From: an uncultured Planctomycetales bacterium
Lineage (GTDB): Bacteria > Omnitrophota > Gorgyraeia > Zapsychrales > JBDRMG01
Reading direction: 5' to 3'
Length of the DNA stretch: 64,000 bases
Assembly (NCBI GenBank): GCA_964478715.1
Contig: CAYZIY010000006.1
Coordinates: 23,186 to 87,185 of the forward strand
The notes under the pieces were generated by a model. The model saw only the letters and a list, made by a program, of their open reading frames with translations. It was not told where the DNA came from and did not search any database. Positions 8,641 through 61,375 of this stretch are shown here, in pieces (positions within the stretch are counted from its first letter, which is position 1; each line of letters begins with the position of its first letter). The translations under genes and the position numbers were made by a program.

Positions 8641-9044
8641 TTTCTTTTTTCTAGGCTATATTGTCCAGGTCCGATGATGGCTAAACTTATAAATATAATA
8701 AATAGTTTTAAAGGATGACTGAAGACCGAGAATTCCTGCCCATTATTGATATGCATCATGGTGGCGACGAACATAGTTAGCGCTAATAATACATTGGCCC
8801 AGCGAAAAAGAAATCCTGCTGTCAGCAGAAATCCTCCAAGAAATTCGGCAACAGAGGCCAGGAATCCAAAAAGTGTGGGGGCAAAATAAATTCCGACACT
8901 GGCCGTTGCCATTCCTAAAGATTTCCAGACCTCGGGTCCTCCCGTTATTTTGGGCCATCCGTGAAGCATCATCATAATGCCTAATCCACAACGCAGGATG
9001 AGCAATCCAGTGTCTTTATTTTCTTTCAAAAAAATATTACGCAT
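8637..9044 (-). CDS. DoxX family membrane protein
   Basis: Four predicted TM helices with LLILRCGLGIMMMLHGWPKI. The ORF track start at 9119 would overlap the upstream gene by 83 nt, so the internal Met at about 9044 was chosen. Confidence 0.55.
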   Translation of the reverse strand: MRNIFLKENKDTGLLILRCGLGIMMMLHGWPKITGGPEVWKSLGMATASVGIYFAPTLFGFLASVAEFLGGFLLTAGFLFRWANVLLALTMFVATMMHINNGQEFSVFSHPLKLFIIFISLAIIGPGQYSLEKRK

Positions 9045-10752: not shown

Positions 10753-10771
10753 AACGGATCCCTGTGGAGAA

Positions 10772-44332: not shown

Positions 44333-46192
44333 TTATAAATCTTTCGGATTACCAGGATTGCTTCGTTTTCCTTGAAGAATTTCGGATACAGCCCAATACG
44401 CGATATCTTTCGTATTTGATGATGGATTTATCGATATTGCCCGAAGAATAAGTTGAACACCTGCTCCGTGATAGCCCAGATCAATCAATAGGGCTCCCTC
44501 TTCCAAAAGATCATTGAAATGAAATGGAGGATTAAGCATGTCCTTTATCTTGGATCTGTCTCTGGAAAGTATATGCTGTTTTAGCAATTCGAGATCGCTC
44601 TCCTGAGTCTTAACGGCGGTCATCCTTGTTTCGTAATTTTGTGCTTTTTCAGGAAGATCGAAAGTATTCCTTCTCACAAAGATAACATTGGTCTTATTGA
44701 CGAATATAAGCTGCCAATCGGGATCGTGATTCAGATAGTCGATAAATTTCCATAGAAAATGCTTGGCGGTATCCAATAAAACGATATGCAGATTGTGAGT
44801 TTTCGAAAATTGCGGCCACAGTTCTTCATGTGAGATGATGACGTCATAATATTGATCCATGAAATTTTTATCAAGTTGACGACCATCCTTGACCGGTTTC
44901 AGATTGGGATAAGCAGACCACAAAAGATAGCCTCCGTAAACGTGAGAATTAAAGACGGGTCCGGAGATCTTGGTTTCCTTAAGGAACTCAACAGCCTCCC
45001 CAGGATTACCAAAATAGATTGCAGAGCTGTAGAAATTAACTACGCGTCCATCAAGGTAGAGTCTTTTAGTAAATTTGCGATATCCTTGAAAGGCTAAAAG
45101 AGAAATTAAAAGAATTATGTAAAAAGCCGGATGGCGCAGTATAGAAAAAATTTTCTTGTTCATAATTTTGAGGATAAAACTTTTCGAATTCTGGAAGGTT
45201 TCGGTAATGATGACGCATGAAATCAAACCGAAATACACAGATGCTCTTTTCGTATAAAGAAATAAAAATAAAGCAAACATAAAATGCAGAAGAAAAAGAA
45301 AGCGAAATTTCTTATTGATTGCAAGAGAAAAGATTACCAAGGCGATAGTCAGGTGAGCCCAGAGTCCGCTGAGTTTCAATAGATATAATGGAGGCCGAGC
45401 TTCAGCGATAATAAGACTGTATCGGCCATAATGAGAAAATCCGGGCTTAAGAAAGAATTTGAACCAATGCAACACCCCTTTTATTCCATGGGGGTTTATG
45501 CAAAAGGCTAAAAGCAGGAGAGTATAGATTGATATGTTTTGCGTGAGGCGTTTTATTATTCTTTGCTTCTCTGAATCACGAACAAATAATTGAACGAAAT
45601 CATGAAAGATGAAGACGACCCAAAGGAGATTTCCATAAACAAACGCACCGGGGTGGATGTTGTACCAGATAATACCGAGAACCGGAAGCCAAAGAATATG
45701 TTTAGACTGATCGTCTTTTTGGTGTTTCAATAATTGAGTAAAGAATATGATGATACAGGGAAAATTGATCAAAAGCGGACGCAAGAGGCATCGCAGCGAC
45801 AGAGGATAAGATAACAACAGGCAAATGACCAGTAAAAAATAAAAGGATATTTTTTTACGGTAAATAAGAAAAAATAATGCCATTACGCAAATCAAATAAA
45901 TCAATCTGAAAAGAATCAAGCCTTGTAAACCCGCGATACGATAGGTTCCGTAAAGCAAGACATCTCCCAGCCATTGATTATGGATCCAGGGTATTTCTTT
46001 TTCGTTGAATGAAAAGGGATCTACGAGGGGAATAGTTTTATTTTGAACAATCCACTCCCCTGTTTTAAGATGCCACCAGACATCATCGGTTTCAATTGGT
46101 TGATAGAATATCAGGGCAAGATAAGCGATGAATAAAACAAGGGCTGCAATCTGATATTTAGAATGGCATGAACTATGTGGTTTTTCTAACAA
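44333..46192 (-). CDS. Large polytopic membrane protein, GT-C-like (candidate glycosyltransferase) coupled to the pilin genes
   Basis: 619 aa with more than 12 predicted TM helices. First extracytoplasmic loop carries ETDDVWWHLKTGEW...WIHNQWLGD. The C-terminus is a soluble domain. The start is 3 nt after the upstream pilin stop. Confidence 0.45.
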   Translation of the reverse strand: MLEKPHSSCHSKYQIAALVLFIAYLALIFYQPIETDDVWWHLKTGEWIVQNKTIPLVDPFSFNEKEIPWIHNQWLGDVLLYGTYRIAGLQGLILFRLIYLICVMALFFLIYRKKISFYFLLVICLLLSYPLSLRCLLRPLLINFPCIIIFFTQLLKHQKDDQSKHILWLPVLGIIWYNIHPGAFVYGNLLWVVFIFHDFVQLFVRDSEKQRIIKRLTQNISIYTLLLLAFCINPHGIKGVLHWFKFFLKPGFSHYGRYSLIIAEARPPLYLLKLSGLWAHLTIALVIFSLAINKKFRFLFLLHFMFALFLFLYTKRASVYFGLISCVIITETFQNSKSFILKIMNKKIFSILRHPAFYIILLISLLAFQGYRKFTKRLYLDGRVVNFYSSAIYFGNPGEAVEFLKETKISGPVFNSHVYGGYLLWSAYPNLKPVKDGRQLDKNFMDQYYDVIISHEELWPQFSKTHNLHIVLLDTAKHFLWKFIDYLNHDPDWQLIFVNKTNVIFVRRNTFDLPEKAQNYETRMTAVKTQESDLELLKQHILSRDRSKIKDMLNPPFHFNDLLEEGALLIDLGYHGAGVQLILRAISINPSSNTKDIAYWAVSEILQGKRSNPGNPKDL

Positions 46193-46195
46193 AGC

Positions 46196-46906
46196 TTAAA
46201 AACTATGAAGTTGAGGGGTTGTTTGTGTGTGGATTTCGAATCTCGGGTTTGTTTGCTGATCAAGCGGTGTTTGACAGGGCTGGGTGTTGTCAAAGCAAGA
46301 ACGAAGCGTTAAGTCCAAATAAAAATCGCTGACAGCCGGATCGTCATTTCGTTCAAAACTGGTAACAAAACCACCAGCTTCAATGGCAGGGTCGAGAACC
46401 TGGCCCACAACCGGGGCCACGGCAGTGCATATTGTCCATCCGCCTCTGCATCGATGAATGTTCTGTCCTATTTGGGTATAGCAGGTGATCACGCCCAAAT
46501 ATTCTTCAAGGGGTACCTGTAACATGCAGGTATTCGAACACTGATCATTGGCGCCGCTATAGCCGCCGTCGTCACACTGTTCTCCAGCTACCAAATAGCC
46601 GTCTCCGCAAACTGCATCAGCAATAAGTTCCCGATAACGGCTGCGGATACAAAGAGTGGATGCGTCGGGCATGCGGATACCCAAATCATTCGCGTGTCCT
46701 GTGGCCATTTCGGCTCTTTTTGCGATTTCCATCATCAAGCCGGTTGTGCGGCTGGCAACCAGAGCATCACGGGATGCGCCTTGCTGCATTTGCCGCATGG
46801 AAGAATCTGTAACCACAATGCCGATGCCGACAATACCGGCAATGATAGCTACGATAAGCAGTTCGGTTAAAGATAACCCGTTTTTTATGAGCAGACTTTT
46901 TCTCAT
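46196..46906 (-). CDS. Type IV pilin-like protein with a Myxococcus-type cysteine-rich repeat
   Basis: Prepilin N-terminus KNG|LSLTELLIVAIIAGIVG (Glu at +5) and a C-terminal CGDGYLVAGEQCDDGGYSGANDQCSNTC repeat. Start taken at the internal Met (MRKSLL). Confidence 0.65.
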   Translation of the reverse strand: MRKSLLIKNGLSLTELLIVAIIAGIVGIGIVVTDSSMRQMQQGASRDALVASRTTGLMMEIAKRAEMATGHANDLGIRMPDASTLCIRSRYRELIADAVCGDGYLVAGEQCDDGGYSGANDQCSNTCMLQVPLEEYLGVITCYTQIGQNIHRCRGGWTICTAVAPVVGQVLDPAIEAGGFVTSFERNDDPAVSDFYLDLTLRSCFDNTQPCQTPLDQQTNPRFEIHTQTTPQLHSF

Positions 46907-46925
46907 GATTTCTTCCGGAACAAGG

Positions 46926-47321
46926 TCATTCTGTCCAGGTAATATTGAGCGTGATTTTGCGCAGGGCCTTAGGGTTTCCTCCGATAGCGATGTTCGTGCA
47001 TGTAATTTGAACATCTCCGTTAAAGTTACTTAGTTCAGCCGGAAGAGTTCCTGTCCATGATTGAGTGGTTCCCGGAGCCGGAGAGCATGTTAAAGGAAAT
47101 GATCCATCCCAGATGTCCTGATTGACTTTAGACCGCAGCTCTTCCAGTATCTGTTTGCCCAAATGAGCTGCAATGATATCGCGGTCAGAAACGCCTCCTT
47201 CCTGCCGTGTCGCGCGAAGAGCGGTAAAAGTGCCCACAACGGCTACAGAGAAAATCAGAGTCGAGACAAGGACCTCGGCCAAGGAAACGCCTCGAATATT
47301 ATTTCTTAATTTCTTTATCAT
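46926..47321 (-). CDS. Minor (pseudo)pilin, PilV/GspI-like
   Basis: N-terminus MIKKLRNNIRG|VSLAEVLVSTLIFSVAVVG with Glu at +5. Start taken at the internal Met. Confidence 0.6.
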   Translation of the reverse strand: MIKKLRNNIRGVSLAEVLVSTLIFSVAVVGTFTALRATRQEGGVSDRDIIAAHLGKQILEELRSKVNQDIWDGSFPLTCSPAPGTTQSWTGTLPAELSNFNGDVQITCTNIAIGGNPKALRKITLNITWTE

Positions 47322-47322
47322 T

Positions 47323-47757
47323 TTAATTGTAGGGGCAGGCACCGGTGGTGCACCGGGGGTTTATATTGCCTTCAACATCCAGATTATTTTCTGTAACGAT
47401 GATTCGGAAGCGGGATGTATCCGCCAGAGAAGGACTGGCTGCTTCGCAAATAAACATCATACTGTTTCCGCTGCATTCATATTCAACATTTGATTCCGGT
47501 AAAATATTGATATTTAAATTTGCGTTTATGGCTGCCACTCCTTGAGCTCCTCCATTTGGCCAGAATCCACCGAATTTGGCTCGATAAGCCATGTTGGCGC
47601 CGTGAATGATGACCAAATTATTGGTGGCCGTGCGGGCTGAAGCCAGCACCATGCTGCGTTGAAAATTTGGAATCGCCAGCCCGGCGATAATTCCCACAAT
47701 GATGACGACAACAAGGACTTCCGTTAATGTGTATGATTTATGGCTGGTATATTTCAT
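47323..47757 (-). CDS. Type IV pilin-like protein (paralog of the next gene)
   Basis: N-terminus MKYTSHKS|YTLTEVLVVVIIVGIIAGLAIP with Glu at +5, and C-terminal Cys pairs. Confidence 0.6.
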   Translation of the reverse strand: MKYTSHKSYTLTEVLVVVIIVGIIAGLAIPNFQRSMVLASARTATNNLVIIHGANMAYRAKFGGFWPNGGAQGVAAINANLNINILPESNVEYECSGNSMMFICEAASPSLADTSRFRIIVTENNLDVEGNINPRCTTGACPYN

Positions 47758-47766
47758 AATAAAATC

Positions 47767-48261
47767 CTAAGGACAAAAGCCTGAAGCAGAAATGCAGTTC
47801 GGATTTGTCGCGTCAAGAGGTTGATTGAGGTGAATATAGATTAAATAGGAATTACTAGGTTGAACTGTCGCGGGATTCATATTAGGACAAGTTCCTGTCG
47901 GGCGACAAACTCCGCAAATATGAATCTCTACCGGTACTCCTAGCCCTGTTGAACAGGCATATTGTTCATTATTATGAGGAATAATATTAAGATTGAGATC
48001 CGCATTAATTCCTTGAATATCTTTCTCAAAACCTGGTCCCCCAAAAGGAGGCCAGTATGTCTGCGTTTCTAATCTTCTAGCCTGTGCGGCCGCGTGGATC
48101 AAAAGGAGATTATCGATCGCCTGCCTGGCGTAAGAGCGTTCCCGCATTCTTGTTAAGTTGGGTAGGGCGAATGAAACCAGTACCCCGAGGATGACAAGAG
48201 TAACCAGTATTTCTGTCATCGTAAATCCGTTACGCGCATATTTTAAGGGACCTAAAAACAT
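47767..48261 (-). CDS. Type IV pilin-like protein (paralog of the previous gene)
   Basis: N-terminus MFLGPLKYARNG|FTMTEILVTLVILGVL with Glu at +5. Shares the LIH.A..A.R....YWPP/NGG...G..A.NA.LNLNI.P....Y.C block with the 47323-47757 pilin. Confidence 0.65.
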   Translation of the reverse strand: MFLGPLKYARNGFTMTEILVTLVILGVLVSFALPNLTRMRERSYARQAIDNLLLIHAAAQARRLETQTYWPPFGGPGFEKDIQGINADLNLNIIPHNNEQYACSTGLGVPVEIHICGVCRPTGTCPNMNPATVQPSNSYLIYIHLNQPLDATNPNCISASGFCP

Positions 48262-48275
48262 AATGATAATCTCAA

Positions 48276-48734
48276 TTAGAAACCAAGATCCCCGCATGGG
48301 GAGCCGGCTGCCATATCCCGGCATATAATTTTCCCGTTACTGCAGATCGTGAAACCGTAGTCATTCGTTCGCCGGTCAATGCTGGCGGCCTCAACTCCGC
48401 TGGGGCAGACACCCGGATTACCGGCATTGATGATATCCGGCGCCAAGAAATTACTTGAAGCCGCTTGATCGATATCTAAAGGCCAGCCGGCATTATCGCT
48501 GGAGTAGCTGTTATGGTCAAGGCGCCAGCGTTCTTGAGAGGCCAAGACGGCTTCAAGAATGCGGCGCCCTTCTTGTGCCCGCTGGCGTTCGATGATTTTT
48601 CCCATTTTCGGCAACATCAGGCCAGCGATTATTGCGGTCATCAAGATTACGACCAATAACTCTGTAAGCGAGTAGCCGCTTGAATATATTTTCTCAGAAA
48701 ATATATCACGGAAAACTCTAAAGGAATTAGTCAT
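48276..48734 (-). CDS. Type IV pilin-like protein
   Basis: N-terminus ...KIYSSG|YSLTELLVVILMTAIIAGLMLP with Glu at +5. Start codon uncertain; the ORF track gives 48782. Confidence 0.55.
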   Translation of the reverse strand: MTNSFRVFRDIFSEKIYSSGYSLTELLVVILMTAIIAGLMLPKMGKIIERQRAQEGRRILEAVLASQERWRLDHNSYSSDNAGWPLDIDQAASSNFLAPDIINAGNPGVCPSGVEAASIDRRTNDYGFTICSNGKIICRDMAAGSPCGDLGF

Positions 48735-49182
48735 CCAAGTTATCGAACTTGCCGTTACCTGCTTTCGCGCCATCTTCTTCAATTTCTATCCAGTCATCAT
48801 CATTGCCTGGTGTCGGTGTTCCGCTTCCGGCCAATCTCCGAGTAGCTCTAATTCTGAATGTGGTATCGGTATTATCCTCCGCAGTATAATTGAATAATCT
48901 TCTGGCTGGATCATTGGGATTTTCAACATCGCATCCTGGGCAAAGATTATCATTGTTTTCTGGATCTGCTGTTTCATCGAGGCAACTATTATAGGATCCT
49001 TTAACAAAATAACATCGCTGGAGTGACTGGCGCAACTCACCGAGTGTAGAGAGCGCTTCCATGGCGCGGGACTGCTCGATTGTGTTGGAAAAACGCGGAA
49101 TCGCCAAGCCGGCCAACACACCCATAATAATAATAACAATCAGAACCTCAAGAAGCGTAAAACCTTTTTTGGATAACATCAT
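48727..49182 (-). CDS. Type IV pilin (candidate major pilin, first in the pilin array)
   Basis: N-terminus MMLSKKG|FTLLEVLIVIIIMGVLAGLAIP (classic Gly-1/Phe+1/Glu+5), AAGGAGGA RBS upstream, and an acidic C-terminus. Confidence 0.65.
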   Translation of the reverse strand: MMLSKKGFTLLEVLIVIIIMGVLAGLAIPRFSNTIEQSRAMEALSTLGELRQSLQRCYFVKGSYNSCLDETADPENNDNLCPGCDVENPNDPARRLFNYTAEDNTDTTFRIRATRRLAGSGTPTPGNDDDWIEIEEDGAKAGNGKFDNLDD

Positions 49183-49297
49183 ACTTCCTCCTTCTTTTTC
49201 TTTATTCTTTATGGAATAATTCCAAAACATATTGACAATTCACTTTAATAGCATATTTTTCTTATCCGCACCCACCTCCTCTCGAGGATATATTTTT

Positions 49298-50527
49298 TTA
49301 AAGACTCGCGATATCAAATATTGGAAGATACATAGCTACAACGGCAATCAAGATAAACACACCCACTACGATGATCATCACCGGTTCGAAAATAGTCCCG
49401 AAGCGTTTTAAAAATGTCTCAACGGTTTTTTGATAAAATTCAGATACCTTGTTGAGCATTTTGCCCAGTTCACCGGTTTCCTCGCCGACCATAATCATTT
49501 GAACCGTCATCGGCAGGAAGAATCCGCTCTGGCCCATGGGCTCGGCGATCAATTTTCCTTCACGGACACTGCTTTTGATCTCTCCGATGGCTTTTTCGGC
49601 CGTTAAGTTATTCACCAGTTTTTGAGAAATATCCAAAGCGTAAAGGATGGGGACGCCGCTTTCAACCAGAATCGCCATTTGCGAAGTGAAGCGTTCAATC
49701 ACAAAAATCTTATAAATTTTGCCGAATTTCGGCAATAAAAACAGGATATTCTCAATATTACGCCGGCCGTTAAAAGTCAAAGTATATCGATGCCCTATAT
49801 AGAGTATAGCACCAAGACTGGCCAGTATCACGAGAAATCTGGTTCTAATGAGTTCAAAAAGACTAAGGAAAAAAAGCGTTAGTCCCGGCATATCCACATC
49901 AAAGGCGCCGTAAAGATCCTGAAACTTCGGGGCGATAACGATCGCAAAAAAGCAGATCGCCCCAAAAGCGAACAGGATGAGGAAAACAGGATAGATAACT
50001 GCCGAAACAACGGCCCGATTAAAAGCGTCTTGCTGCTCCAAATAGAATGCGAGTTTTTCAAGTACTTGCGGCATATTGCCCGAAGTTTCTCCCACTTCGC
50101 AAAGACTGACCCAGAATTGATTAAAAACTTTAGGATGTTTAGCAATGCTTGAGCTAAAAGAATTGCCGGCTTCTACCTCAAGGGCCACCTGAGTCAAGAC
50201 ATCAGCCAGCTGTTTGCTTTCGACCTGTTCGATAATGATCTTAAGACTGCGTAAAAGCGGAACGCCGGAATCCAGCATAGTAGCCATTTGATGGCAGAAA
50301 ATCAGTAAATCTTCAAGGCAGATACCACCGTGCGTGTAGGCTTTTCTATCGGCTCTTTTTTTGATTTGGGCCGATGGTGTGATGCCGGAAGAATAAGCCT
50401 CTATGGCAACAATATAGTATCCCTGATTTTGTAAACGCGTAATCAGAGTGTTTTCATCAGGGGCATCATCAGTTCCCTGAAGCGTTTTGCCTCCAACATC
50501 TTTGACTGTATAGGAATAACGTGGCAA
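49298..50527 (-). CDS. pilC: Type IV pilus assembly platform protein PilC (GspF family)
   Basis: Two T2SS-F domains and three TM helices, 409 aa. Confidence 0.9.
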   Translation of the reverse strand: MPRYSYTVKDVGGKTLQGTDDAPDENTLITRLQNQGYYIVAIEAYSSGITPSAQIKKRADRKAYTHGGICLEDLLIFCHQMATMLDSGVPLLRSLKIIIEQVESKQLADVLTQVALEVEAGNSFSSSIAKHPKVFNQFWVSLCEVGETSGNMPQVLEKLAFYLEQQDAFNRAVVSAVIYPVFLILFAFGAICFFAIVIAPKFQDLYGAFDVDMPGLTLFFLSLFELIRTRFLVILASLGAILYIGHRYTLTFNGRRNIENILFLLPKFGKIYKIFVIERFTSQMAILVESGVPILYALDISQKLVNNLTAEKAIGEIKSSVREGKLIAEPMGQSGFFLPMTVQMIMVGEETGELGKMLNKVSEFYQKTVETFLKRFGTIFEPVMIIVVGVFILIAVVAMYLPIFDIASL

Positions 50528-50543
50528 GCTTGACTCCTAAAGT

Positions 50544-52250
50544 TTAAATCGTTACACTTAAGATTTCTTCCAGACTCGTAATGCCTTCAGCTACTTTTTT
50601 CATGCCGTCTTCAAAAAGGGTAATCATGCCGTTTTTACGGGCCAGTTCTTTGATTTCCACATAGGAAGCCTGTTTGTAAATGATGCGGCGGATATCGTCA
50701 GTGATATTCAAAATTTCCGTGATAGCGACTCGCCCCTTGTAGCCGGTTTGGTTGCATTCTTCGCAGCCCTTAGGGCGATAAATAAGATCCGCATTGATTT
50801 TGATGTCAGAAAATTGCTGTTTTTCGGGCTCATAAGCCTCTTTACATTTTTCGCACAAGCAACGGGCCAGGCGCTGAGCAACAACCATGTTCAAGGAAGG
50901 CATCAGAAGATAGGGTTCGACTCCGATATCCAAAAGCCTTGTGATGGCCGACGATGCATCATTAGTGTGCAGTGTGCTTAGAACCATGTGGCCGGTTAAA
51001 GCGGCCCGTACGCAAATTTGAGCTGTTTCCAAATCGCGCACCTCACCGACCATCATAATATCCGGATCCTGACGCAGGAATGACCGCAAGGCTGAGGCAA
51101 AAGTTAAGCCGATTTCCGGCCGGACATTCACTTGATTCAGTCCGTTAATTTTAAACTCTACTGGATCTTCGATGGTCATGATATTCTTTTTCGGATCAAT
51201 CAGTTCTTTGAGGGCGGCATAAAGAGTTGTAGACTTGCCGCTTCCCGTAGGCCCTGTTACAAAAAAAAGTCCATAAGGAGATTTGATTGATTTTCTGATT
51301 TTCTCCAGAGATTTGGGATCAAATCCCAGGTGAGATAGCTGCAGAGGCGCTGCCTTTTGATCTAAAATTCGCATGACTACTTTTTCTCCCCAGACGGTGG
51401 GGACAGTTGAAATACGCAAGTCAACGGTACGGTCTTCGAGCCGTACCATGATGGCTCCATCCTGGGGCAGGCGCTTTTCGGCAATGTCCAGCTTGGCCAG
51501 GATCTTGATGCGAGAGACAATCGGCAGATGAAGGTGACGGGCCGGCGGCGGGATTTCATAAAGAACCCCGTCGATGCGATAGCGCAATGACAGACGATCT
51601 TTGGTCGGCTCCACGTGGATATCGCTTGCCCGCTCATCAATAGCCTGACGGATAATCAAATCTACCAGTTTGACCACCGGGGCTTCTTCGGCCCTGGCGA
51701 TCAGCTTGTCGAGGCTCAGCTCTGTTTCTGCTTCTCTGCTGAGGATGCTGGAGCGTTGCGTGGCCGATTCATAGGTACTTTGAACTGCTGCTCCGAGCAT
51801 AGAAGAATGACTTTCGCTATAGAATTCTTCTATCGAATGAATAATATCTGATTTTGTGGCCAGCACAAGATTGACTTCACATCCGGTTATTTTCTTCAGA
51901 TTATCCATCAAGAGCAGGTCCAATGGATCAAAAACAGCGCAGGTGAGCGAATTCAGATGGCGCGATAAGGGCAAAACCAGATTCTTCTGGGAAAATTCCT
52001 TGGAAATTAAATCTTCCAGGCCTTGATTGGGCTGAGGTTTGAGCAGTCCCCCTTGGCGTGAGGCATAAGGGATATTGAGCTGTTTAGCGAGAGCGGTAAT
52101 CATTTCGCTCTCCTTAATCATACCCAGGCGAATAAAGATTTCACCGATACGCCCGCCCTCTCTTTGCTGATGGGCAATGGCTTCTTTGAGTTGTTTTTCG
52201 GTAATGAGCTCTTGGGCTAATAATATTTCACCCAGTTTTTTATAAGTCAT
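50544..52250 (-). CDS. pilB: Type IV pilus assembly ATPase PilB (GspE family, with N-terminal T2SSE_N domain)
   Basis: N-terminal GSPII_E_N-like domain, Walker A GPTGSGKSTT, and a tetracysteine motif (CEKC...CEEC). Confidence 0.9.
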   Translation of the reverse strand: MTYKKLGEILLAQELITEKQLKEAIAHQQREGGRIGEIFIRLGMIKESEMITALAKQLNIPYASRQGGLLKPQPNQGLEDLISKEFSQKNLVLPLSRHLNSLTCAVFDPLDLLLMDNLKKITGCEVNLVLATKSDIIHSIEEFYSESHSSMLGAAVQSTYESATQRSSILSREAETELSLDKLIARAEEAPVVKLVDLIIRQAIDERASDIHVEPTKDRLSLRYRIDGVLYEIPPPARHLHLPIVSRIKILAKLDIAEKRLPQDGAIMVRLEDRTVDLRISTVPTVWGEKVVMRILDQKAAPLQLSHLGFDPKSLEKIRKSIKSPYGLFFVTGPTGSGKSTTLYAALKELIDPKKNIMTIEDPVEFKINGLNQVNVRPEIGLTFASALRSFLRQDPDIMMVGEVRDLETAQICVRAALTGHMVLSTLHTNDASSAITRLLDIGVEPYLLMPSLNMVVAQRLARCLCEKCKEAYEPEKQQFSDIKINADLIYRPKGCEECNQTGYKGRVAITEILNITDDIRRIIYKQASYVEIKELARKNGMITLFEDGMKKVAEGITSLEEILSVTI

Positions 52251-52256
52251 ATCAGT

Positions 52257-53756: not shown

Positions 53757-53768
53757 TTTATATTCTAT

Positions 53769-54143
53769 TTATAATTTATCGATTTTGAATTCTTTTCCCA
53801 TAAATCTGATCGAGATGCCCGTTGGTGAAATATCAAGGATTTCGGCTTGATCGATGGAATCTCCGATGCTGACAACCTCATCATTGACAATGGCTTGAGG
53901 CTTTTTCGTGTCCCAAATGAGACCGCTAATCGTCAAGGATGGGGGTATAATTTCTTCGGGAATTTCTTTTCGAATTTTAGTTTTGGGAGTAACTTTCTCC
54001 GTTGTCTCAATCGGCTTCGGCTTCTTGGGCAATTGCGAAACAAAAGGATTCTGAAATCTCAGATCCCTCCTTTCAAGAGCACAAGCCAAATGTGTTTGAC
54101 CGAAGAAGAGAAGACAGCTTAAGAAAGTGATGAATATCCTCAT
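53769..54143 (-). CDS. PilP-like periplasmic pilus assembly protein
   Basis: Signal peptide, Pro/Lys-rich linker and a C-terminal beta-domain (GLIWDTKKPQAIVNDEVVSIGDSI...). Position between pilO and pilQ. Confidence 0.5.
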   Translation of the reverse strand: MRIFITFLSCLLFFGQTHLACALERRDLRFQNPFVSQLPKKPKPIETTEKVTPKTKIRKEIPEEIIPPSLTISGLIWDTKKPQAIVNDEVVSIGDSIDQAEILDISPTGISIRFMGKEFKIDKL

Positions 54144-54754
54144 GGTTGTCCTTCCTTGAAATTGATGGCAACGATATTAATGTTAGCTGTTATCTTATCT
54201 TCGCCTGGGGGATCTGTAAAAGAAAAATAACTGCTTCTTCTGGTAGATGAGCTTCCCATTTCAAAATTGTCGACTCTCAAATTTATGTTGGCGTTTTCCA
54301 GATCATAAATGAAATAACCGATCTGCTCATACGAATCAGCTCGGACCACCAGTTGCATCTGGATCGGATAAAAAAATTCGGTCTCGCGGGATCTTTGGGG
54401 TGTGTAATCAGAAATTTGAATATTGTTAGCGGTAGCCAGCTGGTTGATCTTCCCGATCAAATCATCCACTGTTTCCGGCCCCTGTGGCAGAGATGTTCTG
54501 ATGCTATTCAGGTCCTTTTCGGTCGCGTTCATTTTTTTAACAGCTTTTTCTTTTTGTGATAATTCATTGATTTCTTGTATTAAGGTTTCTTTTTCCTTTT
54601 GGATGTATCCGGATATTTTCATTGCCATAAATAAAACGGCCAGAATGATAACGATATTGGCCAAGATGTCTTTGCGCATTTTCAGCTGATTGATGATCTT
54701 ATTGATATCAATGTCTTTAATATCGTATTCTTTAAGATCCTGGAAAGTGAGCAT
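54140..54754 (-). CDS. PilO-like inner-membrane pilus alignment protein
   Basis: Short cytoplasmic N-terminus, one TM helix, a coiled coil, then a periplasmic domain. Position between pilMN and pilP. Confidence 0.55.
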   Translation of the reverse strand: MLTFQDLKEYDIKDIDINKIINQLKMRKDILANIVIILAVLFMAMKISGYIQKEKETLIQEINELSQKEKAVKKMNATEKDLNSIRTSLPQGPETVDDLIGKINQLATANNIQISDYTPQRSRETEFFYPIQMQLVVRADSYEQIGYFIYDLENANINLRVDNFEMGSSSTRRSSYFSFTDPPGEDKITANINIVAINFKEGQP

Positions 54755-56296
54755 TTATTCGCACCTGATTTCAAAATGGGTTGACACGATATCATCTTCC
54801 TGGTTTTTGCGAACCGAGACCAAAACAATATTATCAAATTCAGCAGAAAATTCTTTGTTACGCCGCAGGGAATCGACGAATTCATTGATCACTTCCACCT
54901 GGCGTGATGAGTTTTTGTCATAAACCTGTCCTTGCAGAGAAACCACGGGGGATATTATGTTTGCGTTTTGATCCGTTTGGGATCTGGCGCGTTTTTCTCT
55001 CATTTCAATTTTCATATTATTGAGCCAAGCCCCTTTCGGAAGAAGCTGGGGGATCATGTTCAAATAAAAGGCGGTGTGCGTTTTTACCGGAACACTCTTA
55101 TAACCGTTGATTTTTCTTTCTAGTTCGATTTGCTTGCTTTGAATATCGCGGATTTTCAAGGCTTCCAATGGCGTTATTTGCTGGATAATACTCTGCTTGC
55201 GCTTCCTGACTTCATTTAATTCTCTATTTTGCCAGCTATAAAATATGCCAAGCAGAACAGCGCAAGCGACAGCGATCTTGATGGTGAGCTGAAAATCTAC
55301 CGGTGCCCATTCGACAGGGGCTTCCTTTTTTTTGGGTCTTCGCTCTCTTTCGGATAGATCGACTTTAAAAGGAAGCGGAATTTCTTGGCGCAAAGTTATA
55401 CCCATTGCCTGGAGACAACCCAGATCAATGCCCTGCTTCGATTCAAATAAACCTTGAGAACTGACAGCGGTTGTTTTGACACCAAGCGCTGTTTCAAGAT
55501 CTCCGGTTCGGCTTTGATTGATATCATCTGTAAGGAATAGAATCTCATCGACCTTTGCTTGAGAATGTTGACGGCGATAGTAGTCGAGCGATATTCTGAT
55601 TTCGTTTATCAGGTTGGTTTTTAGCGCGGCCTGGTCAGCGCTCAGGCTGCTTTGATCGGAAGAAAGCTTAAAATCTCTGATGAATTGTGGGGATTCGGAG
55701 TCGATAATCATAAGACTCCCAAACAGATTATTGAGCTGCAAAACAGCAGAAGTTTTTTTGGGTTGGATGATTTTCTTAGACCGCAGAAGTCTTAAAAGAC
55801 CGATGGGCGCCGGTTCGATGAATCCGACATCCAAGCCAGACTGCTCGATCAGTTCCCGGTATTTCCTGACAATCTCCTTGCGGACAGCAATGAAAAGAAT
55901 TCTGATGCGTCGGTTTTTGTTTTCTTTGACGGTTTGGGTGTGATAGCTGAATAATAATTCATCGAGTTTAAAAGGAATATAGCGACGCACTTCAAATTCG
56001 ACGACTCCTTTGACTTCTGAGCTGGTCATCCAGGGGATGTAGAAAGATCTCAGAATTATTTCATGACTAGGCAAAGCCAATAAGACATCTTGGTTTTGGA
56101 CTTCGTGATCTCTGAGGCATCGTTGGATGATTGCAGCTAATTTGATGTCATCGTCAATATTTTGAATGGAAGGCTGCTGCGTATTATCGAAAAGGCTATG
56201 TGGAGCCGAAAAGCAAAAAAGGCATTCTTTCTTTTGAGTCTGAACCATATTCAACGAATTGATTCCGAAATAGATACCGAGTTTCTTTTTATTCAT
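54755..56296 (-). CDS. Fused PilM (actin-like ATPase fold) and PilN (TM plus periplasmic domain) protein
   Basis: 513 aa. N-terminal 330 aa are PilM-like. Then a TM helix (IKIAVACAVLLGIFYSW) and a PilN-like coiled-coil/periplasmic region. Confidence 0.7.
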   Translation of the reverse strand: MNKKKLGIYFGINSLNMVQTQKKECLFCFSAPHSLFDNTQQPSIQNIDDDIKLAAIIQRCLRDHEVQNQDVLLALPSHEIILRSFYIPWMTSSEVKGVVEFEVRRYIPFKLDELLFSYHTQTVKENKNRRIRILFIAVRKEIVRKYRELIEQSGLDVGFIEPAPIGLLRLLRSKKIIQPKKTSAVLQLNNLFGSLMIIDSESPQFIRDFKLSSDQSSLSADQAALKTNLINEIRISLDYYRRQHSQAKVDEILFLTDDINQSRTGDLETALGVKTTAVSSQGLFESKQGIDLGCLQAMGITLRQEIPLPFKVDLSERERRPKKKEAPVEWAPVDFQLTIKIAVACAVLLGIFYSWQNRELNEVRKRKQSIIQQITPLEALKIRDIQSKQIELERKINGYKSVPVKTHTAFYLNMIPQLLPKGAWLNNMKIEMREKRARSQTDQNANIISPVVSLQGQVYDKNSSRQVEVINEFVDSLRRNKEFSAEFDNIVLVSVRKNQEDDIVSTHFEIRCE

Positions 56297-56335
56297 TATA
56301 GTGTAAAGAATGGTTCATCATTTAGTATAAGCGAT

Positions 56336-56527
56336 TTAAGAGCGTGCTTTACGGGCTCTCGAGCGCAGCCAACGATCAATTTCTTTCTTATCGAATCTCC
56401 AGACGCCTCCGATCTTGATCCCCGAGATCTTTCTTTGATTGAGCCAATTGTAAATGGTTTGCTTCTGGAGCTTTAGGTAGTTTGCCAGCTCATCGACATC
56501 CATTAAGCTGTTAAGTCCACGCGGCAC
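56336..56527 (-). CDS. Small HTH_17/excisionase-family DNA-binding protein at the head of the pilMN-Q-B-C-pilin gene string
   Basis: VDELANYLKLQKQTIYNWLNQRKISGIKIGGVWRFDKKEIDRWL. Ends 40 nt upstream of pilMN. Start is GTG at 56527 or the internal ATG (MDVDEL). Confidence 0.6.
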   Translation of the reverse strand: MPRGLNSLMDVDELANYLKLQKQTIYNWLNQRKISGIKIGGVWRFDKKEIDRWLRSRARKARS

Positions 56528-56591
56528 AGGAAATATCTTCCTTTCTGGAAGTACGGTTCTTTGATTAGAATTAGTTAACCTTCTATTTTTT

Positions 56592-56620
56592 ATTACACTA
56601 TAATAAACTTACTTGGTCAA
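56592..56620 (-). promoter_or_regulatory. Putative sigma70-type promoter for the HTH-pil operon
   Basis: In an AT-rich 186-nt gap, minus strand: TTGACC, a 17-nt spacer, then TGTAAT. Weak call. Confidence 0.3.
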
Positions 56621-56713
56621 TTATAAAGTTCCCTATTTTTCAAAATGGTCAAATTTTGGAAAAATGAAAATACTTCTCGAAGCGGATTTTGGCTGGAGTC
56701 AAGCGAAGGAATC

Positions 56714-57052
56714 TCAATAGGATATCGTGATGCCTACCTCATCGGTTCCGCTGGGTCCGGCCCCTGCGGAATTAGCGACATTGACCGAAAAATCTTTTCC
56801 ATCTAGAGTTTCGCTGGGAGGAACGAAGGGTCCAGGATTACCCTGGAGCGTTCGGTAAGTGTAATGGTACCACAGGGCTCCCTTGGCTAGTTCTTCGGCT
56901 TTGATGCGGTCGATTTGATGTTGTGAATAAATTGCTTTTGAATAATTGGTGCTCACGACCCCCACGGTTACAATCATCATCGCGATGGAAAGAATGATCA
57001 CCAAAACCAAAACGACACCTTTACTATTTCCTGAAATCTTCATGCTTTTCAT
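56714..57052 (-). CDS. Small membrane-anchored protein with a PilX_N-like hydrophobic N-terminus (possible minor pilin/pilus-associated)
   Basis: N-terminus MKSMKISGNSKGVVLVLVIILSIAMMIVTVGVV with no Glu at +5. Gly/Pro-rich C-terminus. Confidence 0.35.
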   Translation of the reverse strand: MKSMKISGNSKGVVLVLVIILSIAMMIVTVGVVSTNYSKAIYSQHQIDRIKAEELAKGALWYHYTYRTLQGNPGPFVPPSETLDGKDFSVNVANSAGAGPSGTDEVGITISY

Positions 57053-57278
57053 TTCCTTTATAATGAATATAGCTGAGACAGTGAGGGCATTGGATGATTT
57101 CATCGCCGTAAGTCATTTCAAAAAAAAGTGTACAATACGGACATTGTTTGTGGTTCGATCGATACTGCTCACATCTTTTTTCCTCTCTATAAGTATAATT
57201 GATCCAGGCGGCAGCAGCAAGCACAATCGCGATAAAGACAAGCAAAGCAATGGCTTGGGAGAATTCGATTTCGATCAT
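57024..57278 (-). CDS. Small membrane protein with a zinc-ribbon motif (CPYC...CPHC)
   Basis: MIEIEFSQAIALLVFIAIVLAAAAW...CPYC..(15 aa)..CPHC. Its ATG overlaps the TGA of the upstream TonB-like gene (ATGA). Confidence 0.45.
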   Translation of the reverse strand: MIEIEFSQAIALLVFIAIVLAAAAWINYTYREEKRCEQYRSNHKQCPYCTLFFEMTYGDEIIQCPHCLSYIHYKGNEKHEDFRK

Positions 57279-57724
57279 GGATGAGATTCGTCCAAGGTTA
57301 ATGGTTGCGGCGGCTTCACCGAGGGTCCGTTGTTTCCAAGCGGCAGTCTTTGTTTGGGGAAAATATCGGTCCATTCTTTACCGGTAGGCCACTTTTTTGA
57401 TTCCTTTATGCTGATATTTTTTTGATCATTTTGATCAAAGGTCGGCTTTTTTTCGGCCCGATAGAGATCTTTGACCAGCGAAGGTTTTAAAGATAGATCC
57501 TGATCGACTGTCAGTGAAGCGGAAAGTTTCTCTGGCCGGATTTTTTTAGACGCTTTCTTCTTGCTGAGTTCCTCTTCCCTTAGTATGGATCCGATAAAAA
57601 TTGCCAGAGGTTTTTTTTGTTCTTTTTTGCTGCGAAAGACGATAACAAATAAACTCAGAACGAGAGCGTGAACGGCTAAAGAAAGGCAGAATGCATAAAA
57701 CAAAAACGATCTCGAAAGCCTCAT
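57275..57724 (-). CDS. TonB-like N-terminal anchor protein (SxxxH TM motif, Lys/Glu-rich linker, no recognisable TonB C-terminal domain)
   Basis: MRLSRSFLFYAFCLSLAVHALVLSLFVIVF with the S-x3-H motif. Immediately downstream of exbB-exbD. Start taken at the internal Met. Confidence 0.5.
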   Translation of the reverse strand: MRLSRSFLFYAFCLSLAVHALVLSLFVIVFRSKKEQKKPLAIFIGSILREEELSKKKASKKIRPEKLSASLTVDQDLSLKPSLVKDLYRAEKKPTFDQNDQKNISIKESKKWPTGKEWTDIFPKQRLPLGNNGPSVKPPQPLTLDESHP

Positions 57725-57734
57725 AAGGCTATCC

Positions 57735-58139
57735 TTAATCTTTTCGGTCTGTGGCGATGTTGACTCGTTCGATCTCAAGTTCCCGGCATAAATCCCAGAT
57801 ATCAATGATGCGCCCCAGCGAGGCCCGGCGATCCGCTTTGATCAAGATGGGTCGCTTGCGGCTGTCCGCTTTAGACAGTCGGGTCTTTAGGTCGGCCATA
57901 GTGGCGATAGAATTTTCCAGATAAACGATATTCTCGCTGGTCACGACAATTTCGATGTTCTCCTCGTCGATAACTTCGCTGGTGATGGCGCGCGGCAGCT
58001 TGACTTTAATACCGGATTGAAAAACGAAAGACGACGAGAGCATAAAAAATATGAGCAGCTGAAAAATAACGTCGACAAGCGGGGCGAGATCGATCTGCTT
58101 AAGTCCGGAATCAAGTTTTGTTTGACGTTTAAATTTCAA
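57735..58139 (-). CDS. exbD: Biopolymer transport protein ExbD/TolR
   Basis: LAPLVDVIFQLLIFFML TM helix with conserved Asp, 134 aa. Confidence 0.85.
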   Translation of the reverse strand: MKFKRQTKLDSGLKQIDLAPLVDVIFQLLIFFMLSSSFVFQSGIKVKLPRAITSEVIDEENIEIVVTSENIVYLENSIATMADLKTRLSKADSRKRPILIKADRRASLGRIIDIWDLCRELEIERVNIATDRKD

Positions 58140-58819
58140 GAAATATCCTTTTCGTTGTCATTGTCCTGATTATGGTGAGAGACTTCTCTTTGTGAGAGCA
58201 GATTCAGCAATTCGGTGGCGCTGTGTTCCATCTGCAGAATAAAGGCATTTACGCGATTGACAAAATAATTATAGAAAACGAAAGCAATGATCGCGATGAT
58301 TAGTCCGGCGACCGTTGTTAAAAGAGCTTCCCAGATACCGCCGGCCAAGTCTCCGGGAGTAACCGGATTAAGAGAGGTGGCTCTCTCCTGAATAGTATGA
58401 AAGCTGGCCGCCAAGCCGGTGACGGTCCCCAAGAGCCCCAGAAGCGGTGCAATATGGGAGATGGTAGATAAAGCAGGCAACTTTTTTTCGAGGCGGGGTA
58501 CTTCATAGAGGCTGGCGTCTTCGATGGATTCCCTGATTTCTTCTCGAGACGCGCCGAATTTGATGATTCCGGCCTGCAGGATTTTAGCAACCGGTGATCG
58601 ACTGTTTTCGCATGCAGAGAGCGCCTCTTGCCAATCATTATTTTTAAGCGCGCCAAAAATGTTCTCTTTGAGTTTTTTGACATTGGTGGTAATGGAACTG
58701 TAAAAAACAAAACGTTCAATAATAATGGCCAGTGAGAGCACGGAGCATAGAAGCAGAACATACATAATCGGTCCACCGGCCATCATCAAACTCCACGCGT
58801 CAATTTTCCATATCCCCAT
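58136..58819 (-). CDS. exbB: MotA/TolQ/ExbB proton-channel family protein
   Basis: Three TM helices and ISHIAPLLGLLGTVTGL motif. Confidence 0.85.
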   Translation of the reverse strand: MGIWKIDAWSLMMAGGPIMYVLLLCSVLSLAIIIERFVFYSSITTNVKKLKENIFGALKNNDWQEALSACENSRSPVAKILQAGIIKFGASREEIRESIEDASLYEVPRLEKKLPALSTISHIAPLLGLLGTVTGLAASFHTIQERATSLNPVTPGDLAGGIWEALLTTVAGLIIAIIAFVFYNYFVNRVNAFILQMEHSATELLNLLSQREVSHHNQDNDNEKDIS

Positions 58820-58834
58820 TGTTAGACCCCCCCG

Positions 58835-61375
58835 TTATTGATTGAGTGAACTGTTTTGATCGATCCATTCCAGGCGTTCTTTGGCAAACTTTGATTCATC
58901 GACCTGCTGATTGACGATTTTTTCATAGACAAGCTTGGCATTTTTCCAGTCTTCTTCATCTTCAAAAATCCGGGCCATTCTCAGATAAGCCTTAGTGGTC
59001 CAGTGAAGTTCATCCGGAAAAAGATAAGGAATTTTCAGATAAGCCTCAATGGCTTTGTTATTTTCATTTATTATTTCATAAGTATCGGCAATCAAAAAAT
59101 AAATTTCAACCTCTTTGATCGTGCTCAGACCCTTAGCAGCCTTAAGCGCTTTTTCGTATTCATTCAGGGCCTTGGCGTGCTGATCTTGCTGTAGGTAAAT
59201 ATCCGCACTTTTAATAAAAGAATCACGCATAAATTCGGGACATTGTTGAGCGATATTCAGATAGATATCGACAGCTTGATCGTGAGGAATATCGCGGGAG
59301 AAAATATTGGCAATGGCCAACTGAGCTTTAGCGAAGACTTCTCGATGGGTGGTGTCGGTGATTTGTTTGTACTGATTCAGAGCCAAATCAAATGATTCCT
59401 TCTTTTCATAAGCCTGACCCAGATAGAGTCTAGCCTGATCCACGCTGCCGCTGTCGGGGAACTGATCGATAAGTTGAGTTAGGTAAGTGATCACCTGGTC
59501 CCAATTTTCCTGAGCAAAGTAATATTGCCCCAGCCAAAACAGAGATTCAAGCGCTGCTTCACTTTGCGGATATTTATAAATAATAATCTTAAAACGCTTT
59601 AACGCTTCTTTGTCATTCCCCAGGCTGTAAAAACACTTAGCGATATTGATTTCTACGTCCTTTAATAAATTTTTTCGATGAGAATAGTTCATTAAGATTA
59701 ATTCAAAATTATCTTTTGCCTCATGGACTTCCCTTAGATTAAAATAAGCCAAGCCCATCAGATAATGGGCGTCTGGCTGGAGCTCATGGGTATGGGGAGC
59801 CTGATCGATAAAAGCCTGCAGTTCCTCTTTGACCGCCTGCCAGTTTTCTTTTTTGAAATAGGTCAGGCCCAAGTAGTATTTTGTTTCCAATAAATAGCGA
59901 CTGTCCGGATAATTATTTTTAAGACTTTGAAAAACGATGGCCGCTGAATCGGTACGTTCCATTTTGAGTAAGACAATTCCCTGACGGTATTGCACGTAGT
60001 CGGTATAGAGGCTCTCGGGAAACTCTTTCAGAATACGATCGTAAATATTGAGAGCCTTGGACAATTTACCGGTGTCGTGATACGCATCGCCGATTTGTGT
60101 TAAAGCGCTGATTTTGATCGATTTACTTTGTGCTTGGTCGACAATGGTCTGAAAGCTTGCGATCGCTTTTTCTATCTCTCCTTGTTTTAAAAAAATCCAT
60201 CCCAAAGAAAAGTATGCTTTCTGGACGATGTTTTTCGCTTGAGGTTGGTCGTCTACGGTTTTGATAATCAAACGATTTTGTTTAATAGCTTCATCAAAAC
60301 GGTTCAGTAGATATAATTCATTGGCTTTACCCAATCGGGCTTCTGGAATATGAGAACTTTGAGGGTATTCAGTGATCAATTGGTTGTAGACGGATAAAGC
60401 ACGGAGATGATCATTTTGTTTGGCGTGAAGTGTGGCTTGGGCTAAGAGGACGTCATCCGCCGGAAAATTATTGACTTGGGCTATATCCAGCGCTTTGGTT
60501 ATATGCATTTGCGCATTGTCGAAATCATTGAGCTTTAAGAAACTCCATCCTGCGCTGACATTGGAAAGCAGACAAATGTTTTGGTCGCTGCTGATCTCCA
60601 TGGACTTTTTATAATATTCGATGGCTTGAGGAAAATCTTCATGATAATAGTAGCATTCTCCCATTAAGAAATAAGCTCTCTCGGCTTGAACGGATTTCGG
60701 GAACTGAATGATAAATTGTCGGAAGGTTTCAATCGCTTTTTCATAAAGGCCGGAAAGATATTGCGATTCGGCAGCTTTAAAGAGACTTTCTTGGTAAAGT
60801 TCATGATTCTTAAAGCGGTTAACAAACTCCAAAAATATTTTCTGAGACTCTTGATAGTTGTCTTGTTCGAAATAACTCCAGCCTAATGAATGCAAGGCGG
60901 TGGGGACGTATGGTGAATCAGGGTATTCGTTAATCAACTGATGATAAAGCTCCTGGGCATTGGAATAATCTTGACCTTTCAGGTAAGTCTCTCCCATCCA
61001 AAACAGAGTCGCGTCTTTGAGAGAGGAAGTTTCCAATAACCCGCGGAAAACTTCAAAGGCTTCAAGATATTTCTCTTGAAAGAAATAACAACGCCCGATT
61101 AGCAGTTTGGCTTCATTCTTTTTACTGGATCGCGGATACGTTTTTAGAAAATCATTCAGATAGCGAACAGCCGTATCGTAAAAGCGGTCGTCATAAGCGC
61201 GTTGAGCGACATAAAAAAGCTCTAGCTCGCTTTCGGCATAAATGCTGACGCTAAAGGGATAATTCCCTAACGCCGTTGAACAAAGCAAAGTTAGAAAAAG
61301 GACTCTTAAGAAGGATGCGCGTGCCATTTTCGTGATCATTCGCCGTATTATAACAAGTGTCAGAGGCATTGACAA
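58835..61375 (-). CDS. Large secreted TPR-repeat protein (846 aa, more than 15 TPR units)
   Basis: Signal peptide then an almost uninterrupted TPR array. Lies 11 nt downstream of uvrA and 16 nt upstream of exbB. Confidence 0.7.
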   Translation of the reverse strand: MSMPLTLVIIRRMITKMARASFLRVLFLTLLCSTALGNYPFSVSIYAESELELFYVAQRAYDDRFYDTAVRYLNDFLKTYPRSSKKNEAKLLIGRCYFFQEKYLEAFEVFRGLLETSSLKDATLFWMGETYLKGQDYSNAQELYHQLINEYPDSPYVPTALHSLGWSYFEQDNYQESQKIFLEFVNRFKNHELYQESLFKAAESQYLSGLYEKAIETFRQFIIQFPKSVQAERAYFLMGECYYYHEDFPQAIEYYKKSMEISSDQNICLLSNVSAGWSFLKLNDFDNAQMHITKALDIAQVNNFPADDVLLAQATLHAKQNDHLRALSVYNQLITEYPQSSHIPEARLGKANELYLLNRFDEAIKQNRLIIKTVDDQPQAKNIVQKAYFSLGWIFLKQGEIEKAIASFQTIVDQAQSKSIKISALTQIGDAYHDTGKLSKALNIYDRILKEFPESLYTDYVQYRQGIVLLKMERTDSAAIVFQSLKNNYPDSRYLLETKYYLGLTYFKKENWQAVKEELQAFIDQAPHTHELQPDAHYLMGLAYFNLREVHEAKDNFELILMNYSHRKNLLKDVEINIAKCFYSLGNDKEALKRFKIIIYKYPQSEAALESLFWLGQYYFAQENWDQVITYLTQLIDQFPDSGSVDQARLYLGQAYEKKESFDLALNQYKQITDTTHREVFAKAQLAIANIFSRDIPHDQAVDIYLNIAQQCPEFMRDSFIKSADIYLQQDQHAKALNEYEKALKAAKGLSTIKEVEIYFLIADTYEIINENNKAIEAYLKIPYLFPDELHWTTKAYLRMARIFEDEEDWKNAKLVYEKIVNQQVDESKFAKERLEWIDQNSSLNQ

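Follow-up and report, generated by a model that had tools for sequence, protein, structure and literature searches.

A type IVa pilus locus of Omnitrophota with an upstream Tol/Ton-like module holding its own minor pilin

The DNA analyzed here is a 64,000-nucleotide stretch (hereafter the window) of contig CAYZIY010000006.1 from an uncultured Planctomycetales bacterium, which GTDB places in the phylum Omnitrophota. Its minus strand carries, at 44.3–61.4 kb, a six-gene Tol/Ton-like module next to a set of type IVa pilus (T4aP) genes. Examination of the open reading frames (ORFs), including annotation with Pfam and NCBIfam, recovered every gene of the string named in a preliminary description of this DNA, each at or near the place proposed. 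From right to left, the order is uvrA, a tetratricopeptide-repeat (TPR) protein, ExbB, ExbD, a single-pass anchor, a zinc-ribbon protein, a pilin-like protein, a 186-nt spacer, HTH_17, PilMN, PilO, a gene in the PilP position, PilQ, PilB, PilC, six prepilins, a 619-residue membrane protein, and tRNA-Ala (Table 1). The spacer had been regarded as the only gap above 40 nt, but a second one of 67–115 nt separates pilC from the first pilin. The boundaries of the small module genes matched a separate gene call on a public 2-kb Logan contig carrying the pilin-like gene, and exact-sequence look-ups of the ExbB and TPR proteins of the window gave zero matches. The locus is a T4aP locus with an upstream Tol/Ton-like module that holds its own minor pilin.

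Table 1. Genes and signals of the module and pilus locus (window coordinates, listed in the direction of transcription; TM, transmembrane; aa, amino acids).
Feature	Position	Strand	Remarks
uvrA	61387 to beyond 64000	minus	in frame, leaves the window at its end
sigma70-like promoter TTGTCA-17-TGtTATAAT	61347-61375	minus	between uvrA stop and TPR gene; consensus match only
Secreted all-TPR solenoid	58835-61375 (ORF)	minus	~830-844 aa; CpoB/YbgF-like TPR_6 repeats
ExbB/TolQ-family stator subunit	58136-58819	minus	MotA_ExbB 109 bits; TM3 Glu retained ('GIWEALLTT')
ExbD/TolR-family stator subunit	57735-58139	minus	Pfam ExbD 88 bits; this genome keeps TM Asp23
TolA/TonB-type single-pass anchor, 149 aa	57275-57724	minus	no Pfam hit, no globular C-terminal domain
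Bitopic 84-aa protein, N-terminal TM helix then C4 zinc ribbon	57024-57278	minus	4-nt and 20-nt overlaps with the neighboring genes
PilX/GspI-K-like minor pilin, 109 aa	56714-57043	minus	Gly at -1 conserved; no Phe1, no Glu5
AT-rich spacer, 186 nt	56528-56713	minus	from module to HTH_17/pilMN genes
HTH_17 small DNA-binding protein	56336-56527	minus	Pfam HTH_17 60 bits
PilM-PilN fusion	54755-56296	minus	PilM_2 54 bits; PilN 20.7 bits, just below cut-off; PDB: Thermus, Myxococcus PilM
PilO	54140-54754	minus	Pfam PilO 40.9 bits; T2SSM_b 22.8 bits
124-aa secreted protein, PilP position	53769-54143	minus	weak T2SSB match, 25 bits, below cut-off
PilQ secretin, N0/STN-N1-secretin, no AMIN domains	52257-53756	minus	Secretin 131 bits; Secretin_N; STN
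PilB extension ATPase, MshEN N-terminal domain	50544-52250	minus	T2SSE 469 bits
PilC platform protein	49298-50527	minus	T2SSF 187 bits in two repeats
Six prepilin ORFs	46196-49230	minus	G/S|x-x-L-x-E in all six; N_methyl matches 4 of 6
First prepilin	48727-49182	minus	strong Shine-Dalgarno AAGGAGG
Last prepilin	46196-46906	minus	mature part 226 aa with Cys-rich segment; weak DUF4215 match (24 bits)
619-aa polytopic membrane protein	44333-46192	minus	3 nt after last pilin; ~9 or more TM segments by hydropathy

The first module gene encodes a protein in which Pfam TPR_6 (242 bits) and the NCBIfam model tol_pal_ybgF (TIGR02795; 253 bits in 10 stretches) were detected. In its AlphaFold2 model (pLDDT 90.5), a signal-like N-terminal helix precedes an array of 43 helices, and no additional domain is seen. 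A Foldseek search with this model returned mainly generic eukaryotic TPR scaffolds, together with a scaffold chain of the Campylobacterota flagellar motor (9hmf_K). Homologs of the protein are labeled 'TolA-binding protein' at JGI, and its repeats do match those of CpoB/YbgF. The architecture is however different, as CpoB/YbgF is composed of an N-terminal coiled coil and one TPR_6 domain (~260 residues), while the protein examined here is a continuous TPR array with no coiled coil. The E. coli-type CpoB model accordingly gave 91 bits against a cut-off of 383. The secreted TPR ORF of the preliminary description was found, with its signal-like helix, but the 846-residue length assigned to it is likely to be wrong. 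Translation probably begins at 61339 or 61327 instead of the TTG of the ORF, because that TTG overlaps the best promoter match.

The following two genes encode the subunits of a stator. The ExbB protein scored 112 bits with NCBIfam TolQ (cut-off 221) and 69.5 bits with ExbB, and the best NCBIfam model of the ExbD protein was TolR (60.2 bits; cut-off 127), all of which are sub-equivalog scores. A search of the PDB placed the ExbB protein at an equal distance from TolQ and ExbB (E ~1e-10 to 1e-11). Only one ExbD paralog is present in the window. The next gene encodes the anchor, for which an alignment of 36 orthologs (A2) revealed an S-x3-H motif in the TM helix, FxFLGSIL, K-P, and, at the C-terminus, a P-Y-x-P-L-R-L-like motif, which are separated by low-complexity sequence. 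The His of the TM helix (His19), located four residues past a Ser, is invariant in these orthologs, and a few variable residues follow the C-terminal motif. With hhalign, the TM helix of the anchor, and nothing else, was aligned in register with the TM helices of TolA (E 1.9e-4) and TonB (E 0.024) of E. coli. No Pfam family, including TonB_C, was detected in the anchor of the window and 35 further orthologs, so that the earlier view of a TonB-like protein lacking the usual C-terminal domain holds for all 36 orthologs scanned. A short linear motif such as the C-terminal one might dock in a TPR groove or add a β-strand to a partner protein.

The best-scoring models are TolQ and TolR, TolA gives the better alignment of the anchor, and the repeats of the TPR protein resemble those of CpoB, which makes the module a Tol/Ton-family unit that is somewhat nearer to Tol than to Ton. 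The preliminary label of an ExbB/ExbD/TonB-like module is right about the ExbB and ExbD domains, while the homology itself is closer to Tol. The anchor lacks both the TonB C-terminal domain and domains II and III of TolA, and neither TolB nor Pal is encoded in the window.

The remaining two proteins of the module are small. The four Cys residues of the zinc-ribbon protein are invariant in 32 orthologs, its Pfam matches are to generic Zn-ribbon families only, and the ribbon is predicted to lie on the cytoplasmic side according to the positive-inside rule. The pilin-like gene overlaps the zinc-ribbon gene by 20 nt, and for this reason was assigned to the upstream unit. A single-sequence search yielded 3 homologs of this protein, while a profile made from locus-derived orthologs yielded 41. 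The AlphaFold2 model constructed with these 41 homologs (pLDDT 86) contains an N-terminal helix of 61 residues followed by a three-stranded sheet, and a conserved Gly precedes the hydrophobic segment, which has neither Phe1 nor Glu5, as in GspK/PilX-type subunits. This is the architecture of a minor pilin or pseudopilin. PilX_N matched 13 of 32 orthologs, and one homolog is named PulK in its source. The predicted fold and these matches uphold the 'PilX-like' label that had been given to this gene.

Conservation of the locus was evaluated by a scan of one genome per GTDB species, in which 80 loci were retained and their gene order was read by tblastn of the window proteins. Essentially all of these loci are titled Omnitrophota or carry the generic label 'uncultured Planctomycetales' of a metagenome-assembled genome, and single loci are titled Elusimicrobia, 'bacterium', and 'uncultured bacterium'. 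More than 450 homologs of the TPR protein (~830 residues) were found, and every named one belongs to Candidatus Omnitrophota. The recurring order is uvrA, TPR, ExbB, ExbD, anchor, zinc ribbon, pilin-like, an optional HTH_17, PilMN, PilO, the PilP-position gene, PilQ, PilB, and PilC. The pilMN gene lies 0.9–1.7 kb after exbD in 64 of the 66 species-level loci with enough downstream sequence, for which the identity of the TPR protein is 36–50%. The physical joining of the two modules, pointed out earlier for this one genome, is hence a phylum-wide linkage and not an incidental adjacency. The three small module genes are single-copy orthologs in 71–72 loci (72 for the zinc ribbon). HTH_17 lies between the module and pilMN in only ~29 of the 64 linked loci, and where it was not detected the stop of the pilin-like gene is located ~75–130 nt from the pilMN start. 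One locus (L011) was uninformative on re-reading of the linkage. It carries on the opposite strand (9026–11236) a 736-residue repeat-rich ORF with STAMG/TTASG-type repeats, inserted between exbD and the anchor gene, whose C-terminal segment resembles a tail-spike chaperone by eye.

The TM Asp of the ExbD protein corresponds to D25 of E. coli ExbD and D23 of TolR. This residue is required for ion-coupled function in Mot, Tol, and Ton stators and is normally held to be indispensable in 5:2 motors. Among 76 ExbD orthologs, its column reads D in 47 sequences, N in 25, and one of A, S, and T in the other 4, so that the Asp is absent in 29 of them. The TM3 Glu of the ExbB protein co-varies with it and is often Gln in the same species; the ExbD/ExbB residue pair is D/E in 41 and N/Q in 15 species, and the remainder are mixed or otherwise neutral. 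A neighbor-joining tree of the TPR protein showed a basal clade of 17 species that are nearly all N/Q and ~9 further losses within the D/E clade, which amounts to about 10 independent losses of the acidic residue. The lineages with a loss retain intact ORFs, full synteny, and the L-R-L-like C-terminus of the anchor, and in most cases the anchor His as well. The stator had been described as harvesting the proton-motive force. This is compatible with the genome examined, which keeps both Asp23 and the Glu, but it is doubtful as a general property when a third of the orthologs lack the Asp. The recurrent neutralization of a required residue speaks against a dependence of the module's conserved role on proton flow.

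The pilus genes downstream of the module are, by homology, of type IVa. The PilB protein matches T4aP PilB of M. xanthus and Geobacter over its full length (E 1e-146 to 1e-149) and GspE in its C-terminal part only, and the best PDB match of the secretin is Neisseria PilQ (residues 322–736, E 1e-34). A type II secretion system was rejected, as PilB and PilQ are both closer to their T4aP counterparts. The PilM_2 and PilO scores exceed the respective Pfam cut-offs. The putative assignment of the 124-residue protein as PilP follows the gene order alone. Among the six prepilins, the first is a candidate for the major pilin, and the sixth is a candidate for a tip or adhesin subunit. Neither a second T2SSE ATPase nor a Peptidase_A24 domain was detected by Pfam annotation of all 64 kb, in agreement with the earlier remark that PilT and PilD are absent from the window. 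The 619-residue membrane protein that ends the locus showed no sequence match in Pfam, NCBIfam, or the PDB, and BLASTP against the two PMT_2 proteins of the window gave non-significant E values only (0.03–0.08). These comparisons do not support the 'GT-C' label that had been attached to it, and its adjacency to the pilins suggests that it could be a part of the pilus system. The two PMT_2 proteins (9037–10752 and 41629–43425, minus strand) each combine this GT-C-type membrane domain with C-terminal TPR repeats, and a third protein (10772–12451, minus strand) combines TPR with RDD; one of the PMT_2-TPR proteins is located just past the tRNA-Ala that closes the pilus locus. A 172-residue protein (12979–13497, minus strand) is a fusion of a bactofilin domain (88 bits) and a C-terminal HTH_17 (39 bits), the same DNA-binding family as that of the small gene upstream of pilMN.

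Outside the locus, Pfam annotation of the window detected housekeeping genes only, and an Rfam scan gave two tRNAs and nothing else. The ~60 successive genes at positions 1345–64000, nearly all housekeeping, are encoded on the minus strand, and in most cases neighbors overlap or are separated by a tiny gap. The only plus-strand gene of the window is pfk (41–1261), which makes the strand bias over 64 kb extreme. The co-orientation emphasized in the preliminary description is thus true of the locus but nothing special to it. Clusters of type-2/3 F-ATPase were reported less than 10 kb from T4aP genes on many Omnitrophota contigs (Seymour et al. 2023). F-type ATPase genes were not found near the T4aP locus in the window, and the 'symbiotic F-ATPase/T4aP locus' of that study was hence rejected as an explanation of this DNA, which contains no ATP synthase genes.

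The sigma70-like sequence between uvrA and the TPR gene was the best match of a 20-kb scan (11/12 with an extended -10). The equivalent gap contains a match of at least 10/12 in 29 of the 57 species compared, and its mean best score was 9.05, whereas shuffled sequences gave 7.58. The 186-nt spacer shows no significant fold (z = 0.01). For the gap between the pilin-like gene and HTH_17/pilMN in 65 species, no sigma70 enrichment was observed (8.17 vs. 8.27 shuffled), a terminator-like hairpin was present in only 2 species, and the median folding z was -0.03. This pattern is compatible with transcription that starts at the TPR promoter and continues into the pil genes, which would place the module and the pilus genes on one transcript.

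Several known systems share a part of these features. [quoted passage not shown] As far as these excerpts describe it, PocA–PocB–TonB3 ('polar organelle coordinator') is the closest precedent, in which ExbB/ExbD/TonB homologs serve T4aP and not nutrient import. The likeness is functional and architectural and was drawn from literature descriptions. In these, TonB3 is described as a TonB homolog, unlike the Omnitrophota anchor that has no C-terminal domain at all, and no TPR, zinc-ribbon, or pilin-like partner of Poc is described. To our knowledge, the poc genes lie outside the pil operons. The E. coli Tol-Pal system (tolQ-tolR-tolA-tolB-pal-cpoB) shares with the module a TolQ/TolR-type stator, the S-x3-H anchor, and a TPR_6 protein of the TolA-binding kind. 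It differs in that the module has no TolB or Pal, its 149-residue anchor has no domains II and III, and its TPR protein has 830–844 residues compared with 263 for CpoB; the gene order is also different, and pilin-like and zinc-ribbon genes are included and joined to pil genes. Giant TPR proteins and PilMNOPQ-derived parts were reported to scaffold the 5:2 stators of the Campylobacterota flagellar motor (PMC11870540). That scaffold (PflA/PflB, FcpMNO, PflD) resembles the present locus in uniting a giant periplasmic TPR protein, Pil-derived parts, and 5:2 stators in one envelope machine. It belongs however to a flagellum with MotAB stators and exapted pilus parts, whereas the locus examined here has a full pilus assembly set with a Tol/Ton stator, and no flagellar genes occur in the window. 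The pilus genes themselves are like those of Myxococcus, Pseudomonas, and Thermus T4aP in having PilB, PilC, PilM, PilN, PilO, PilQ, and several prepilins. They are unlike the canonical set in the PilM–PilN fusion, the lack of AMIN, the absence of PilT, PilD, and a PilF/Tgl-type pilotin from the window, and the Tol/Ton-like module upstream. In the searchable literature on Omnitrophota, T4aP is near-universal in the phylum and ExbB and TonB are not mentioned, and the study of Seymour 2023 on Omnitrophota T4aP contains zero occurrences of either word. The preliminary description had not recognized the arrangement as a described operon type, and we likewise found no description of it in that literature.

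We consider, with moderate confidence, that the six genes encode a phylum-specific accessory, envelope-spanning sub-complex of the Omnitrophota T4aP machine. Its parts would be a periplasmic TPR solenoid of ~21 repeats, a 5:2-type complex of TolQ/ExbB and TolR/ExbD, an anchor whose periplasmic tail of ~110 residues has short conserved motifs but no folded domain, a membrane-anchored cytoplasmic zinc ribbon, and a minor pilin. We propose that the stator and the anchor form an inner-membrane unit, and that the tail of the anchor grips the TPR solenoid through its C-terminal P-Y-x-P-L-R-L motif on the analogy of TolA and CpoB. The resulting envelope-spanning scaffold would position, stabilize, or help assemble the basal body of PilQ and PilMNOP. 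The pilin-like subunit may be the point at which the unit takes hold of the pilus or its priming complex. In genomes that retain both the ExbD Asp and the ExbB Glu, of which this is one, proton flow might contribute force or a conformational switch. As the conserved core of its function, a structural or organizational role is more likely than an energetic one, because a third of the species have neutralized the Asp/Glu and yet keep every gene. Such a role would resemble the need for PocAB–TonB3 in pilus assembly and localization in P. aeruginosa. The case for a link to the pilus is made up of the genomic linkage, the pilin-like gene within the module, the promoter and spacer pattern, the cohesion of the six genes, the TM motif of the anchor, and the Poc and flagellar precedents.

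Several observations weigh against this interpretation. In 58 of 59 informative loci, uvrA directly precedes the TPR gene, usually at a distance of 30–200 nt, and dap, pan, and fol genes are also syntenic further upstream. Since uvrA is functionally unrelated and equally syntenic, gene order in this part of the genome is kept whatever the function, and proximity by itself does not point to a common role in Omnitrophota. Moreover, one co-oriented stretch of housekeeping genes fills the whole window, the scans for promoters and terminators were crude ones based on consensus sequences, and Tol, to which the module shows homology, has its own pilus-independent role. In addition, the neighbors of the module in two independent lineages (L043 and L051) are housekeeping genes, and the pil genes are located elsewhere or are missing. 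Sugar-nucleotide genes come after the six-gene unit in L043, and in L051 (12527–20839) the unit is joined directly to tilS-ftsH-folP-cdaA-pdxJ. The six genes remain together in both of these genomes. The same tilS-ftsH-folP-cdaA-pdxJ block lies ~50 kb downstream in the window (2511–8007), which puts the breakpoint of L051 exactly between the pilin-like gene and pilMN.

A first alternative, which we regard as unlikely though worth serious attention, is that the genes encode a reduced Tol-type system for envelope maintenance or cell division, consisting of TolQ, TolR, a short TolA, and a giant CpoB, which is a mere neighbor of the pilus operon in the way that uvrA is. A Tol system of this kind would explain the preference of the stator proteins for TolQ and TolR, the tol_pal_ybgF score and database label of the TPR protein, the better fit of the anchor helix to TolA than to TonB, a uvrA adjacency that is as conserved as that of the pil genes, and the existence of modules with no adjacent pil genes in L043 and L051. 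Against it, a minor-pilin-like gene is translationally coupled inside the module, neither TolB nor Pal is present in the window, TolA domains II and III are missing, and every score is below the equivalog cut-off. The repeated loss of the ExbD Asp is also as awkward for a Tol system driven by the proton-motive force as it is for any motor role.

A second alternative, which appears improbable, is that the module is a proton-driven motor integral to the pilus machine and uses the anchor to pull on the TPR scaffold or the secretin, thereby gating PilQ or retracting the pilus in place of PilT. The window does keep the ExbD Asp23, the ExbB TM3 Glu, and the anchor His, no PilT is encoded in its 64 kb, and the N0/STN domain of the secretin resembles the signaling domain of TonB-dependent receptors, which is where a contact of TonB3 with PilQ has been proposed. 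Such a motor is however difficult to reconcile with the 29 of 76 orthologs that lack the Asp, often with Glu replaced by Gln, through ~10 independent losses that left all genes in place. PilT may also simply be located elsewhere in the genome, and the anchor has no TonB C-terminal domain with which to grasp a TonB box. The corollary that the D-to-N/E-to-Q lineages carry a stator turned into a static strut is, in our estimation, improbable to the same degree. The 'outer-membrane-energized motility apparatus' that had been suggested for this locus is speculation. Finally, it is highly improbable that the module has nothing to do with the pilus and is a conventional ExbB–ExbD–TonB energizer of nutrient uptake or a gliding motor of the Agl/Glt kind: the ExbB and ExbD domains are present, and the Glt machinery of Myxococcus includes TPR proteins and Zn-ribbon TonB-like proteins, but TonB_C is absent from all 36 anchor orthologs, which led us to reject the uptake reading, Pfam annotation of the 64-kb window gave no TonB-dependent receptor or outer-membrane β-barrel gene, and only a single ExbD paralog and no Glt-type genes were found.

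Omnitrophota are ultra-small and probably host-attached bacteria. T4aP is regarded as central to their lifestyle (Seymour 2023). If the module belongs to the pilus machine, the pili of this phylum carry a six-protein sub-complex that has not been listed previously. For the question of how ExbBD/TonB-type complexes such as PocAB–TonB3 act on type IV pili, the present locus is a genetically compact system in which the pilin-like subunit, the TPR partner, and the C-terminal motif of the anchor are candidate points of contact. The repeated neutralization of the acidic stator residues with the genes left intact further suggests that such complexes can retain a role other than that of a motor.

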